In this document: positions 30,760-34,798 of the stretch, one piece after another | Numbering within the stretch: the first letter of the stretch is position 1 | Layout: the number at the start of each line of letters is the position of its first letter | NCBI GenBank assembly: GCA_965221125.1 | Contig: CBDCRW010000006.1 | Span: forward strand, 352,001 to 416,000 | Source of the DNA: Alphaproteobacteria bacterium | GTDB lineage: Bacteria; Pseudomonadota; Alphaproteobacteria; UBA828 | DNA: 64,000 nt | Direction of reading: 5' to 3' | Notes under the pieces: generated by a model | Databases searched by the model: none | Told to the model about the DNA's origin: nothing | The model's input: the letters and a program-made list of their open reading frames with translations, nothing else | Position numbers and translations under genes: made by a program

Positions 30760-31676
30760 TGAGCGAGGATCTCTACTGGTCGCTCATAGACATCGCCAAC
30801 GGCCTTCTCTCGGGCACGATGCTCGGCGGCTACTACGCCATCATCAGCCTCGGTCTCGCACTGGTGTTCGGCGTCATGCGCCTGGTCAACCTGGCACACG
30901 GCGACTGGCTGATCGTCGCCGCCTACATCGCCGCGGTGATCGTTCAGTTCCTCGGCTTCCCGCCCTTCGCCTCGTTGATCGTCGTCGTCCCGGCCATGTT
31001 CGCGATCGGCTATGCGCTGCAGCGCTACGTGCTGAACCGGGTCTCGGTCCAGGCGATGGAAGAGAAGGGCATGTCGTCCGGCTTCGGGCTCATGTCGCCC
31101 ATCCTGGTGACCTTCGGCATGTCCATTGTGCTCGCGCACGCGCTGCTCGGAATCTTCGCCTCCGACGCCACGGTCATCAAGAACGCGCTGAGCTACTCGG
31201 CGATCCGGCTCACGCAGGATCTCAGCATCTCGACCCTCCGCCTGATCTTCTTCGGCATTGCCGGCGCGATCCTGGCGGGGGTTCACCTGTTCCTGCACCG
31301 CAGCCACGCGGGGCGCGCAATCCGCGCGGCGTCGGACGACCCGGAGGTCGCTTCGCTGATGGGCATGCGGACGGAGCGCATCTACGCGCTGGCGAGCGCG
31401 ATCTCTCTCGCGGTCGCGGGCGTTGCCGGAGTCGCGGTCGGCATGTCGCGCACCTTTCAGCCGTTCGACGGGCCGCAGTTCCTGCTGATCGCGTTCGGCG
31501 TGGTCATCGTCGGCGGGCTCGGGTCGATCGCCGGCAGCCTGGTCGGCGGAGTCCTGCTCGGCATCACGCAGGTTCTCGCCGGGACCTACTTCGGCCCCTC
31601 GGCGCAGCTCGTCGCCGGCTACATGCTGATCCTCTTCGTGCTCGCGGTGCGCCCGCAAGGGCTCTTCTCGCGATGA
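30759..31676 (+). CDS. ABC transporter permease (LivH-like)
   Basis: SLGLALVFGVMRLVNLAHG, GRAIRAASDD, VIVGGLGS, VRPQGLF. Confidence 0.92.
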   Translation: MSEDLYWSLIDIANGLLSGTMLGGYYAIISLGLALVFGVMRLVNLAHGDWLIVAAYIAAVIVQFLGFPPFASLIVVVPAMFAIGYALQRYVLNRVSVQAMEEKGMSSGFGLMSPILVTFGMSIVLAHALLGIFASDATVIKNALSYSAIRLTQDLSISTLRLIFFGIAGAILAGVHLFLHRSHAGRAIRAASDDPEVASLMGMRTERIYALASAISLAVAGVAGVAVGMSRTFQPFDGPQFLLIAFGVVIVGGLGSIAGSLVGGVLLGITQVLAGTYFGPSAQLVAGYMLILFVLAVRPQGLFSR

Positions 31677-34600
31677 TCGCGCGCGGCCTCAACGTCCTGC
31701 TGAGCGGCTGGTCGGGCCGCGGCCTGCTCGCCGCGCTGCTCGCCGTCGCCGTCGCCATCCCGTGGCTGGTCGGCGACCAGAGCTACGTGACCTACCTGGT
31801 GTTCACGTTCTTCGTGTTCGCCGTGTTCGGGCATGCCTGGAACCTGCTGGCCGGCTACTGCGGCCTGCTCTCCTTCGGCAACCAGGTCTATGTCGGCATC
31901 GGCGGTTTCACGCTCGCGATCATATTCTACTACGGCGGCATCAACGTCTGGCTGGCGCTGCCGATCTCCGGGGTCGTCACGGCGGCCTTCGCCTTCCTGC
32001 TGGCGACGCCGGTGCGCGAAAGCCTGGTGGGGATCGGCGTCTGGAAGCCCGTAGCGGTCGCAGGCGTGCTGTGGGCCGGCTACGAGGTCGCGCTTGGCTA
32101 CTTCCCCGAGGCCGACATCTTCGGCGAGGTCTATATCCGCCGCGTCATCATCCTCCTGCTGATCTTCCTCGGCGCCCTTCCCCTGCTGCGCCTGCAGGGC
32201 GCCTATTTCGCGGTCGCAAGCTGGCTGATCGCGGCCGCGGTGGGCTCGATCTTCAATGAGTGGAAAGTGGTCGGCGCCGGCGGCGGCATGCAGATCAAGA
32301 CCGATGCCACGCAGATCGAGATGTATTACGCCGGCCTCGGCCTGCTGGTGTTCGCGACCGTGGTGATCGCGCGCCTGCTCAAGAGCCGCTACGGGCTCGC
32401 GCTGACCGCAGTGCGCGACGACGAGGAGGCGGCGCGGACGGCCGGCATCGATATCCGCAAGGTGAAGCTGATCGTCTTCGTGGTCGCCGGCGGACTCAGC
32501 GGCCTCGCGGCGGGTCTCTTCTACATTGACGCCGTGATCATCACGCCGCCGGCCGCGTTCACGATCTTCTGGTCGGCCTATTTCGTCTTCATCGTCGTCG
32601 CCGGCGGCATGGGAACGCTGGCCGGCCCCATCGTCGGCGCCGCGATCTTCGTCGTCGTCGACCGCGTGCTGTCCGGCGTCACCGAGTATCCGCTGCTGGT
32701 GCTGGGAATCGCTGCCGTGGTCATCATCTTCGTGATGCCGCGGGGCGCCATGGGCATCGTCAATGCGCTGCGGCACCTGGACGATTCCGCGACCGGCCGC
32801 AACGAGCTGCTCGAAGCCCTCGGCATCGGCGACCGCCTGCAGCGCTCCCTGTTCTTCGCCAGGCGGCGCGACACGAAGCCGGGGGTGGTGGCGGCCTTGC
32901 TGGTTCCGGGCAGCCCCCTGCCGCTGCTCGCCCGCGACAATCCGCCGTGGACCGAGATCGCGGGCGCTTTCGAGGAGGCGTCCGCCGCCCTGCACGAGGC
33001 CAGGCCCGACGTCATCCTCGTCTACTCGACCCAGTGGCTCGCCGTTCTCGACCAGCCGTGGCAGACCCGGCCGCGTGTCCGCGGCCTCCACGTCGACGAG
33101 AACTGGTACGAGTACGGCGAGATCGACTACGACTTCGAGATCGACACCGAGCTGGCGGAGGCGTGCATCGCAGGCTGCCGCTCGCTCGGGATCAAGGCGC
33201 GCGGCGTCAACTATGACGGCTTCCCGATCGATACGGGCAGCATCGTCGCCAACCGCTTCCTCAACCCCGATGGCGCCTGCGCCGTCGTCATGGCGGCGAA
33301 CAACCTCTATCACGACTGGGAGCAGACGCTGAAGCTGGGGGAGATGGCGGCGAACCAGGCGGTGCGTCTCGGCCGCCGGGTCGCCGTCGTCGGCGTCGGC
33401 GGCCTGTCGGGCTCTGCGTTCAGGCACGAGATCGATCCTGCGGACGATCGCATCGCCAGCGAGAGCGAAGACGCGTGGAACCGGCGGATGCTCGACATGA
33501 TGGCCAAGGGCGATGCCTCGGCCATGAAGGCGCTGATCGCCGACTATGCGCGCGAGGCCCGCGCGGACATGGGCTTCAAGCACTTCGCCTGGGTGCTGGG
33601 CGCCATCGGAGGCCGCTTCCACAGCGCCACGGTCCACGCCTACGGCCCGACCTACGGAAGCGGCGCGGCGGTGGTGGAGTTTCACGCCGGCGAAGAGCAG
33701 GCGGCTCTCGCGGCGACGCGGCAACGCCGCCGTCGGCGGCAGGCGCAGCGGGAGCAAGCCGCGCAAGCCAGGTCGCGGAACGACGCCGGCGCCGGACGGA
33801 GACCTCTCCTGCGCTGGCTCCGGGCGGGTTCGCGTCTCGCGGCACCGGCCGATCACCCGCCAGCGGTGCCTGCGACGACGCCTGCTGCGCCTTCGCCGCT
33901 TCCCGCGCGCCGGCAGGCTGCGACGCGGACGGGCCCCGCTCTCTACCGCTCGTTCCGCACGCAAGCCGAGATCGACGCGCAGTATGACGTCGAGAGCAGC
34001 GTGCCGGATTTCGGCCGCTACGTGGATTTCTTCCTCTCCAACAGCGCGCGCGTGCGCGCGGCGCTCAGACCCCGGCTCGACGTGCCCTTCGGCCCGACGA
34101 CCGCCGAGACCCTCGATATCTATCCGGCGGCGCGGGCCGATGCGCCGATCCATATGTTCATTCACGGCGGCTATTGGCACTCGCTCAGCAGCAAGGAGTT
34201 CAGCTTCGTGGCCGAGGGCCTGGTCGCGGCGGGGGTGACGGTGGTGATCAACAACTACGCGCTCTGCCCGGAGGTCACGATCACGGAAATCGTGCGTCAG
34301 AACCGCGCCGCGCTCGCGTGGCTCTACCGCAATGCCGCAACCTTCGGCGGCAACCGGAGCCGCCTCCATGTATCGGGGCATTCGGCCGGCGGCCATCTGA
34401 CGGCCATGTTGCTCGCGACCGATTGGGAGCGCGATTTCGGCCTGCCGCCCGACCTCGTGAAGGGGGGCACCGCGATCAGCGGGCTGTTCGACCTCGAGCC
34501 CTTCGTTCACTCATGGCTGCAGCCCAAGCTGCGCCTGACCGACGACGAAATCGACCGGATGAGCCCGATCCGGCACATCCCGGACCGTGCGTCGCCCCTG

Positions 34601-34798
34601 ATCGTCACGTTCGGCGGCGACGAATCCGCGGAGTTTCGCCGCCAGTCCGAGAGCTTCCTCGCCGCCTGGACCGGGAAGGGCCTCGACGGCCGCTATCTCG
34701 ATCTGCCCGGCCGCAACCACTTCACCGTGCTCGAGGACTACATGGACCCCGACAGCCCCCTCTGCCGCTCGATCCTGCGCCAAATGGGCATCGCTTGA
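31673..34798 (+). CDS. Three-part fusion: LivM-like permease + AmnA-like dioxygenase alpha subunit + arylformamidase (kynurenine formamidase)-like alpha/beta hydrolase
   Basis: Continuous 1041-aa frame. Permease: WNLLAGYCGLLSFG, LRLQGAYFA, AVRDDEEAA, GGMGTLAGP, MPRG (31673-~32790). AmnA-like: LLVPGSPLP..YSTQW..VDENWY..YGPTYGSG (~32884-33685). Pro/Ala/Arg linker. Hydrolase: FIHGGYW, GHSAGGHL, NHF (~33941-34798). Confidence 0.88.
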   Translation: MIARGLNVLLSGWSGRGLLAALLAVAVAIPWLVGDQSYVTYLVFTFFVFAVFGHAWNLLAGYCGLLSFGNQVYVGIGGFTLAIIFYYGGINVWLALPISGVVTAAFAFLLATPVRESLVGIGVWKPVAVAGVLWAGYEVALGYFPEADIFGEVYIRRVIILLLIFLGALPLLRLQGAYFAVASWLIAAAVGSIFNEWKVVGAGGGMQIKTDATQIEMYYAGLGLLVFATVVIARLLKSRYGLALTAVRDDEEAARTAGIDIRKVKLIVFVVAGGLSGLAAGLFYIDAVIITPPAAFTIFWSAYFVFIVVAGGMGTLAGPIVGAAIFVVVDRVLSGVTEYPLLVLGIAAVVIIFVMPRGAMGIVNALRHLDDSATGRNELLEALGIGDRLQRSLFFARRRDTKPGVVAALLVPGSPLPLLARDNPPWTEIAGAFEEASAALHEARPDVILVYSTQWLAVLDQPWQTRPRVRGLHVDENWYEYGEIDYDFEIDTELAEACIAGCRSLGIKARGVNYDGFPIDTGSIVANRFLNPDGACAVVMAANNLYHDWEQTLKLGEMAANQAVRLGRRVAVVGVGGLSGSAFRHEIDPADDRIASESEDAWNRRMLDMMAKGDASAMKALIADYAREARADMGFKHFAWVLGAIGGRFHSATVHAYGPTYGSGAAVVEFHAGEEQAALAATRQRRRRRQAQREQAAQARSRNDAGAGRRPLLRWLRAGSRLAAPADHPPAVPATTPAAPSPLPARRQAATRTGPALYRSFRTQAEIDAQYDVESSVPDFGRYVDFFLSNSARVRAALRPRLDVPFGPTTAETLDIYPAARADAPIHMFIHGGYWHSLSSKEFSFVAEGLVAAGVTVVINNYALCPEVTITEIVRQNRAALAWLYRNAATFGGNRSRLHVSGHSAGGHLTAMLLATDWERDFGLPPDLVKGGTAISGLFDLEPFVHSWLQPKLRLTDDEIDRMSPIRHIPDRASPLIVTFGGDESAEFRRQSESFLAAWTGKGLDGRYLDLPGRNHFTVLEDYMDPDSPLCRSILRQMGIA

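Follow-up and report, generated by a model that had tools for sequence, protein, structure and literature searches.

2-Aminophenol auto-oxidises to aminophenoxazinone. In the 2-aminophenol 1,6-dioxygenases of solved structure (AmnAB/CnbCaCb; 3vsg, 8ihg, 7txy), a catalytic beta subunit (AmnB) and a non-catalytic alpha subunit (AmnA) both occur as free, soluble proteins. The present analysis concerns a stretch of 64,000 nucleotides, referred to as the window, from an alphaproteobacterium of the UBA828 lineage (assembly GCA_965221125.1, contig CBDCRW010000006.1, positions 352,001 to 416,000 of the forward strand), in which one gene encodes a LivM-type permease of an ATP-binding cassette (ABC) importer, a full AmnA-type iron-free alpha subunit (AmnA') and a Ser-His alpha/beta hydrolase as a single fusion protein. 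The window resembles the described enzymes in encoding a beta subunit about 80% identical to the solved ones and a free alpha subunit, and its fused domain matches solved alpha subunits end to end, also without iron ligands; it differs from them in having a further alpha-type copy joined covalently to an ABC permease. As annotated from its sequence, the surrounding cluster is a 2-aminophenol upper pathway (AmnB/A, an AmnC-like dehydrogenase and RidA) with its own importer and hydrolase.

The importer genes are comparable to those of LIV-family (LivHMGF/UrtBCDE-type) importers, with a BPD_transp_2 permease pair, two ATPases and a Peripla_BP_6 protein in one operon, and depart from them in that LivM carries about 670 extra residues, predicted to be cytoplasmic. 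Since no LivM, LivH, LivG, LivF or Urt equivalog cut-off was reached, branched-chain amino acids and urea are improbable as cargo. Flotillins are scaffold proteins, and a gene with the Band_7 and Flot domains of bacterial flotillins (SPFH) lies alongside the operon; unlike those, it goes with a single cluster for catabolism and transport, and was not found in genus relatives lacking the cluster. The hydrolase shares the HGG oxyanion motif, the GHSAG nucleophile elbow and a C-terminal His with hormone-sensitive-lipase/Abhydrolase_3 esterases and with the eukaryote-type kynurenine formamidase (9n8r, 2pbl, 4e11), and differs from both in scoring below the nearest NCBIfam cut-off and in forming its own orthologous group, apart from the paralogues of the same genome.

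A further described system is the actinobacterial ARO microcompartment (PMC10470539). According to that report, Actinobacteria enclose the enzymes of 2-aminophenol degradation in a microcompartment, the rationale being that the intermediates are toxic and unstable: concentrations of 2-aminophenol over 100 uM were toxic to the organism investigated, and, in the absence of the dehydrogenase, picolinic acid forms by spontaneous cyclisation of the ring-fission product. In the same report, the alpha/beta heterodimers are reported to dimerise via their beta subunits, and the natural precursor of 2-aminophenol is stated as an open question. The ARO system has in common with the present cluster an AmnAB-like dioxygenase, an aldehyde dehydrogenase and spatial confinement (which is proposed here), and it differs in using a protein shell, whereas in the Proteobacteria considered here tethering to an importer is proposed, with a flotillin gene and no shell genes. 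With respect to transport metabolons, the link is covalent here for the hydrolase and AmnA', while the association of AmnB is modelled.

The architecture had been proposed in a first-pass annotation, made from the letters of the sequence alone, which regarded it as undescribed. This holds for papers, since no description of the fused architecture or of the cluster, nor of a linkage between flotillin and an aromatic cluster, was found in the full-text literature (subscription journals and supplements were out of reach), and fails for databases: all parts come from known families, and hundreds of such proteins are already deposited publicly under automatic names. That annotation contained neither the greater frequency of a two-domain form, nor the presence of the hydrolase in the cluster even when unfused, nor the flotillin gene.

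One reading frame for permease, AmnA' and hydrolase

The fusion gene (31673-34798, forward strand) is a single uninterrupted frame of 1041 amino acids, according to the listing of open reading frames and its translation, and its ATG overlaps the stop codon of the LivH-like gene ahead (ATGA). Three Pfam assignments were obtained along the protein: BPD_transp_2 (PF02653; amino acids 165-355, 95.5 bits, cut-off 26.8), a permease family; LigB (423-657, 59.8 bits, cut-off 26.3); and BD-FAE/Abhydrolase_3/COesterase (814-920; BD-FAE 62.7 and Abhydrolase_3 49.6 bits). The earlier reading of the gene as one frame of permease, AmnA-like subunit and hydrolase was thus borne out by translation and Pfam. 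The LivM-type domain contains a conserved loop, ALTAVRDxEEAA, at amino acids 243-254, and the permease scored below NCBIfam NF008450, the E. coli-type LivM equivalog (101.8 bits, cut-off 366). Judged from these features, the gene encodes one real membrane protein, the LivM-type subunit of a LIV-family ABC importer.

Third-position G+C was 0.90-0.97 through the permease, the first junction and AmnA', and dropped to 0.67-0.80 at amino acids 666-741, corresponding to the linker between AmnA' and the hydrolase (linker 2), a stretch with no or hardly any stop codons in any of the three forward frames. At the 68% G+C of the window, the open frame alone is therefore no proof of coding there, and the second junction needed outside evidence. 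This was provided by several sources. The full frame without internal stops was found in seven of 19 genomes of the genus, and contigs from two other sponge-metagenome runs (X6 and X9) bridge both junctions: in X6 one contig spans 31872-34798, and in X9 two contigs meet at 33091-33116. Linker insertions and deletions in these contigs sum to -6+9 and -6 bases, i.e. multiples of three. In an alignment of 52 sequences of 1000-1050 amino acids, query included, linker 2 is free to vary in both length and sequence, and the hydrolase keeps its frame throughout; a single row (P0024) is apparently frame-shifted and reads a different frame through linker 2. Three proteins of 983-1011 amino acids and 90-97% identity (P0021, P0023 and P0024) have the permease and LigB domains and no hydrolase domains. 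This pattern is what a frame shift in a G+C-rich linker would give; among the three, only P0024 is in the linker alignment.

An RNA library (X20) yielded contigs that match portions of the fusion gene and bridge the first junction, with no cover of 33709-34041; the library may contain DNA, and nothing was concluded from it on transcription or on the second junction. Related sequence (0.28-0.43 of sampled words) was also present in runs X5-X20, from several studies, labelled sponge or coral metagenome. Four sponge- or coral-labelled runs were compared contig by contig, and any statement on habitat is confined to these.

The connection between AmnA' and the hydrolase had been described as a Pro/Ala-rich linker, which applies to its later stretch; as a whole, linker 2 is Arg/Ala/Pro-rich. 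Its first 30 residues were modelled by AlphaFold as a helix, with the predicted local distance difference test score (pLDDT) below 50 in the remainder. The Arg/Gln/Ala-rich stretch right after AmnA' (33692-33778, amino acids 674-702) corresponds to a modelled helix of 29 residues, and a basic motif recurs at the same position in a distant group of three-domain proteins.

Distribution of three-domain and two-domain forms

The architecture was searched among 5.8 billion proteins, which gave 316 matches among 8000 scored candidates. Within the best 120 listed, 51 protein clusters had the three-domain form (988-1043 amino acids, 57-97% identity) and 66 proteins consisted of permease and LigB only (575-764 amino acids). 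A scan of loci with one genome per species yielded 162 related stretches among 200 pattern matches, of which 79 loci were kept. LivM::AmnA' was carried by alphaproteobacteria of the Rhodospirillales, Hyphomicrobiales (Mesorhizobium, Devosia) and Rhodobacterales (Phaeobacter, Gemmobacter), by many betaproteobacteria of the Burkholderiales (Xenophilus, Methylibium, Rhizobacter, Rubrivivax, Variovorax, Neopusillimonas, Lautropia and others), and by one gammaproteobacterial metagenome-assembled genome (MAG) of the Ectothiorhodospiraceae, with identities across loci of 43-94%. LivM and AmnA' shared one open frame in 64/65 loci, and wherever the hydrolase follows AmnA' it lies in that same frame (13/13 loci). 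No case of LivM followed by a separate AmnA' gene was seen among the loci compared. The fusion thus recurs widely, and is therefore real and old. Carriers include the cultured strains Xenophilus sp. L33, Neopusillimonas aromaticivorans CC-YST667, Mesorhizobium sp. ANAO-SY3R2 and Phaeobacter sp. 11ANDIMAR09, which makes the proposals below open to testing.

The sole exception among the 65 loci (L055) has an in-frame stop between permease and AmnA', reflecting either a sequencing error or a real split. In Paraburkholderia sp. JHI869 (L077), a related set of binding protein, LivG, LivF, LivH and LivM (the latter 51% identical) has no AmnA', AmnB or hydrolase nearby. In two genomes of the window's genus (G003 and G013), the three-domain gene is intact and LivH is reduced to a stub of 126 and 165 bases, respectively; in G003, a truncated flotillin gene abuts the orphan fusion gene. 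These two copies look like rearranged or decaying clusters.

The AmnA' domain and its predicted binding of AmnB

Over its full length, AmnA' aligned with the alpha chain of 2-amino-5-chlorophenol 1,6-dioxygenase (3vsg_A, E 6.4e-101, query 5-271 on chain 3-270) and with 8ihg_B (E 1e-87), and matched beta subunits weakly. It is 58% identical, without gaps, to the free AmnA of the window over 266 amino acids; unlike free, soluble alpha subunits of about 270 amino acids, it sits between a permease and a hydrolase. In an alignment of six AmnB, 52 free AmnA and 64 fused sequences, the free and the fused alpha groups alike have G, Q/R and G opposite AmnB H16, H65 and H198, residues which, numbered as in solved beta subunits, we take to belong to the 2-His-1-carboxylate iron site or to be the catalytic His. 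The acidic ligand position alone is kept, as D or E, in 63/64 fused domains. AmnA' is thus alpha-type and, having lost the iron ligands, is not a catalytic dioxygenase, as had been expected from its motifs.

In the phylogeny, free AmnA sequences form one clade (Shimodaira-Hasegawa-like approximate likelihood ratio test, SH-aLRT, 91), with the fused domains outside it on longer branches. The tree fits an origin of AmnA' in one old duplication, in agreement with the first-pass annotation. Many residues of the fused domain are invariant. A diverged lineage (Devosia, Cohaesibacteraceae, Gemmobacter and Pseudomonadota MAGs) has AmnA' domains 28-34% identical, and in the six of them analysed the predicted beta-binding residues are lost and the frame with LivM is maintained; the lineage also includes L066, a near-duplicate of L065 that was left out of the group of six loci considered below.

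A model of AmnB in complex with AmnA' (amino acids 400-675) gave an ipSAE interface score of 0.88, with 0.00 for the best of three controls; this mark is reached by 58/80 solved complexes and by 2/110 mismatched pairs. Model runs had 92% or more of their contacts in common, with a pLDDT of the partner of at least 93. AmnB itself is encoded 5 kb upstream of the fusion gene, as previously annotated. The proposed docking of AmnB is accordingly supported as regards the capacity for binding in the model, and not as regards actual docking, for which solved homologues make the model a measure of likeness only. Positions conserved in at least 90% of sequences were more frequent at the predicted interface than elsewhere (18/32 vs. 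84/235; Fisher p 0.02, calculated on rows that are not independent). Typical fused domains (57 sequences) were 72% identical to the consensus of free AmnA at the interface vs. 56% elsewhere.

The hydrolase domain

The closest solved structures to the hydrolase were 9n8r_A, 'Lipase 1' (E 3.7e-49), and 2pbl_A (E 4.1e-22), with a distant similarity to the Drosophila kynurenine formamidase 4e11_A (E 1.6e-16). The HGG and GHSAG serine-hydrolase motifs noted in the first-pass annotation are present and conserved: H831, G832, G833, G902-H-S904-A-G906 and H1016 were each shared by 97% or more of the 53 cluster hydrolases compared, so that the predicted catalytic motif set is intact. A search of the ESM Atlas with the hydrolase returned generic 'alpha/beta hydrolase' clusters only.

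Among 47 complete loci, 32 have a free hydrolase, 12 a fused one and three none, and no locus has both; where the hydrolase is free, its gene sits between those of the binding protein and LivG. Fused hydrolases form one clade (SH-aLRT 94), sister to the free in-cluster hydrolases (92), and hydrolase paralogues from genomes of the genus without the cluster fall on a long branch outside both. Being free or fused in sister clades, the hydrolase belongs to the cluster, and one event of relocation and fusion explains the three-domain form. In most of 37 rows, free hydrolases start 1-4 (mostly 3-4) residues ahead of the conserved N-terminal motif, too close for a signal peptide to fit; a few rows have other in-frame starts further upstream. 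A tandem duplicate of the binding-protein and hydrolase pair was observed in a Burkholderiaceae MAG (L047:3150-7472), and an extra hydrolase paralogue lies upstream of the cluster in L017 and L061.

Predicted topology

The fusion protein was modelled with AlphaFold from an alignment of 65 rows (mean pLDDT 81.3, predicted template modelling score 0.44). Helix positions were taken from this model, as a crude hydropathy scan gave overlapping segments. Eight long helices precede the conserved loop at 239-256, which is taken as the cytoplasmic coupling region, and three or four follow it (261-287, 299-311, 318-336 and 340-354). Linkers of low confidence were predicted at amino acids 386-402 and 701-753. 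The tail past the last LivM helix is basic, with eight K/R in 60 amino acids. Based on helix parity, the basic tail and the leaderless state of free hydrolases and AmnB, both soluble domains are most likely cytoplasmic, the side that the first-pass annotation had assumed.

Proposed function and alternative explanations

It may well be, with our confidence evenly divided, that the LivM tail of the importer tethers AmnA' and the hydrolase, so that import, cytoplasmic unmasking and immediate ring cleavage would occur at the transporter. The importer would take up a masked o-aminophenol derivative (ester, amide or carbamate), the tethered hydrolase would free the aminophenol in the cytoplasm, and AmnA' would hold catalytic AmnB at the transporter mouth. 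Because the solved enzymes dimerise through beta, the assembly would probably be AmnA'-AmnB-AmnB-AmnA, with free AmnA at the outer end. The toxic aminophenol would be cleaved at once, and the product would pass to the AmnC-like dehydrogenase and the RidA deaminase of the operon. We infer the cytoplasmic topology, the binding of AmnB, the identity of the cargo and the benefit of channelling. The first-pass annotation had put forward an N-acylated o-aminophenol as the cargo and a limit on auto-oxidation of the free aminophenol, both of which stay proposals here.

More tentatively, a flotillin-associated tethered assembly for a natural 2-aminophenol precursor may exist in Proteobacteria, in which the dead alpha subunit would recruit AmnB, flotillin would gather the units in a membrane patch, the beta-beta dimer could link free AmnA or a second transporter, and the hydrolase would unmask the cargo, as a membrane counterpart of the ARO microcompartment. 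If AmnB is truly held at the importer, an ABC importer would here form a naturally occurring transport metabolon that is hard-wired at the genetic level. A non-catalytic enzyme subunit would then act as a docking adaptor, giving the puzzling iron-free alpha subunit a scaffolding role, and a second independent way of confining a toxic, unstable 2-aminophenol pathway would stand beside the ARO microcompartment. The dedicated binding protein and hydrolase would also offer a handle on the natural precursor of 2-aminophenol, the question raised in PMC10470539, and the flotillin linkage would supply a bacterial flotillin with a definite client that can be put to the test.

A number of observations weigh against tethered import and cleavage. 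As to the fusion itself, a few unfused LivM relatives exist (P0138, P0140, P0141 and P0196; 52-71% identity), no AmnA' follows LivM in L077, the sole unfused relative with visible context, and the fusion gene stands without its upstream partners in G003 (L006) and G013 (L004/L011); the composition of linker 2 resembles non-coding DNA. As to the enzymes, free AmnA lies beside AmnB in 52/52 scorable loci, so that the soluble enzyme could be complete without AmnA', and the fused domains evolve faster than free AmnA. In six diverged fused domains (L060, L063, L065, L067, L071 and L072), identity to the free-AmnA consensus was 17% at the interface vs. 32% elsewhere, and with such decay AmnB docking cannot be essential everywhere. 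Since homologous complexes have been solved (3vsg, 8ihg, 7txy), the complex model reflects likeness, and maybe memory, rather than binding of AmnA'. As to cargo and location, the hydrolase is missing from L033, L053 and L078 among the 47 complete loci, and it scored below HaHSL_fam (NCBIfam NF058665; 164.4, cut-off 320), with no curated equivalog reached; no close relative of the binding protein was found among solved structures (best E 4.8e-07); and the inward orientation of the C terminus is deduced from helix counting and charge.

Part of this evidence would also suit a role of AmnA' as a cytoplasmic sensor or regulatory domain, binding aminophenol or its product and throttling the importer by trans-inhibition instead of docking AmnB, which we consider unlikely. 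Such a role would account for the vestigial pocket with its acidic position (D/E in 63/64 fused domains), for the faster evolution of the fused domains and the changed interface in one lineage, and for the constant retention of free AmnA, which means that the soluble enzyme needs no second alpha. Regulatory C-terminal domains occur on the ATPases MetN, ModC and MalK of ABC importers and provide a precedent; however, they are carried by the ATPase and not by the permease. In addition, the predicted beta-binding surface of the 57 typical fused domains is better conserved than the rest, and the AmnB complex model passes its controls, both of which favour docking over sensing.

We give little credence to the idea that the fusions arose by accident as the operon was compacted through loss of stop codons and have since been tolerated, with AmnA' a slowly decaying duplicate, the hydrolase working free or tethered, and linkage ensuring only co-expression. 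The composition of linker 2, the hydrolase evidently working unfused in 32/47 loci, the degenerate yet in-frame AmnA' of one lineage and the orphan copies in G003 and G013 are in line with it. A frame shared by LivM and AmnA' in 64/65 loci, over two proteobacterial classes and one gammaproteobacterial MAG at 43-94% identity, is hardly what accidents would leave, and neither are the many invariant residues of the fused domain, the lack, among the loci compared, of any with LivM and then a separate AmnA' gene, or the fully coding-like third-position G+C of the first junction. Finally, an assembly or sequencing artefact joining three separate genes, to which the long chance frames that arise at 68% G+C, the openness of linker 2 in three frames and the hydrolase-less P0021, P0023 and P0024 might point, is excluded by the shared stop-free frame in the genus (7/19 genomes), by the 51 three-domain clusters among the best 120 listed, which come from several sources, and by the bridging contigs X6 and X9 from independent runs.

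Gene cluster and flotillin gene

The coordinates of the annotated features are given in Table 1. The order of genes in the window is AmnC-like dehydrogenase, RidA, AmnB, free AmnA, binding protein, LivG, LivF, LivH and, last, the fusion gene. The partner set of the importer is complete, with the second permease, two ATPases and binding protein directly upstream of the fusion gene. In related loci, located by tblastn with the proteins of the window, the order was AmnB-AmnA-binding protein-(hydrolase)-LivG-LivF-LivH-LivM::AmnA'-(dehydrogenase), with the genes in brackets not always present.

Table 1. Positions in the window of the fusion gene parts and of the associated genes.
Feature	Position	Strand	Basis and remarks
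Flotillin-like gene	22321..24030	-	Pfam Flot 122.1 bits (cut-off 27), Band_7 44.5 (cut-off 23.6); divergent from operon
AmnC-like 2-hydroxy/2-aminomuconic semialdehyde dehydrogenase	24199..25686	+	TIGR03216 853.8 bits (cut-off 693.25); Pfam Aldedh
RidA/L-PSP, AmnD-like deaminase candidate	~25673..26077	+	GTG at 25673, start uncertain
AmnB, catalytic beta subunit of 2-aminophenol 1,6-dioxygenase	26167..27081	+	3vsg_B E 1.7e-167; 8ihg_A E 1.9e-165
Free AmnA, non-catalytic alpha subunit	27062..27925	+	Pfam LigB 47.6 bits; without His ligands
Substrate-binding protein, periplasmic	27954..29213	+	Pfam Peripla_BP_6 114.4 bits
LivG-type ABC ATPase	29223..30011	+	NCBIfam LivG model 166.7 bits, below cut-off 362
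LivF-type ABC ATPase	29992..30759	+	NCBIfam LivF model 218.9 bits, below cut-off 441
LivH-type permease	30759..31676	+	NCBIfam UrtB and LivH models, both below cut-off
Fusion: LivM-type transmembrane domain, amino acids 1-367	31673..32773	+	BPD_transp_2; about 12 hydrophobic helices
Fusion: linker 1, amino acids 368-403	32774..32881	+	Basic, variable; third-position G+C 0.93-0.97; pLDDT <50 at amino acids 386-402
Fusion: AmnA' domain, amino acids 404-671	32882..33685	+	Alpha-type LigB fold without iron ligands; 3vsg_A match
Fusion: linker 2, amino acids 672-756	33686..33940	+	Arg-rich predicted helix 674-702, then disordered Pro/Ala-rich stretch
Fusion: alpha/beta hydrolase, amino acids 757-1041 plus stop	33941..34798	+	Abhydrolase_3/BD-FAE; HGG and GHSAG motifs

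The AmnB frame starts with GTG at 26167, after a purine-rich stretch, and has no leader; H16, H65 and E254 were invariant in 28 cluster AmnB sequences. The binding protein opens with ATG at 27954 and a hydrophobic, signal-peptide-like leader that ends in AQA. The RidA gene, situated between the dehydrogenase and AmnB in a frame hidden from the list of open reading frames, was located by tblastn with the orthologue of locus L013 (25655-26071, 86% identity over 139 amino acids); the orthologues of L013 and L039 match Pfam Ribonuc_L-PSP. Two RidA paralogues were observed in many related loci.

Of the 49 related loci in which 3 kb or more of sequence precedes AmnB, 46 contain a flotillin homologue, nearly always immediately upstream and in divergent orientation; in Burkholderiales, a MarR gene separates flotillin from the operon. 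Within the genus, flotillin was present in 6/7 genomes with the fusion (G000, G005, G007, G012 and G014, and truncated in G003) and was not found in G013 nor in any of the 12 genomes without it, counts that overstate independence because the genomes are related. From this pattern of co-occurrence, the flotillin gene behaves like a cluster member, unlike a housekeeping gene.

Downstream of the fusion gene (34970-40944), the window contains an unrelated sugar-type ABC transporter (permease, binding protein and double ATPase) and a hydantoinase/oxoprolinase gene.

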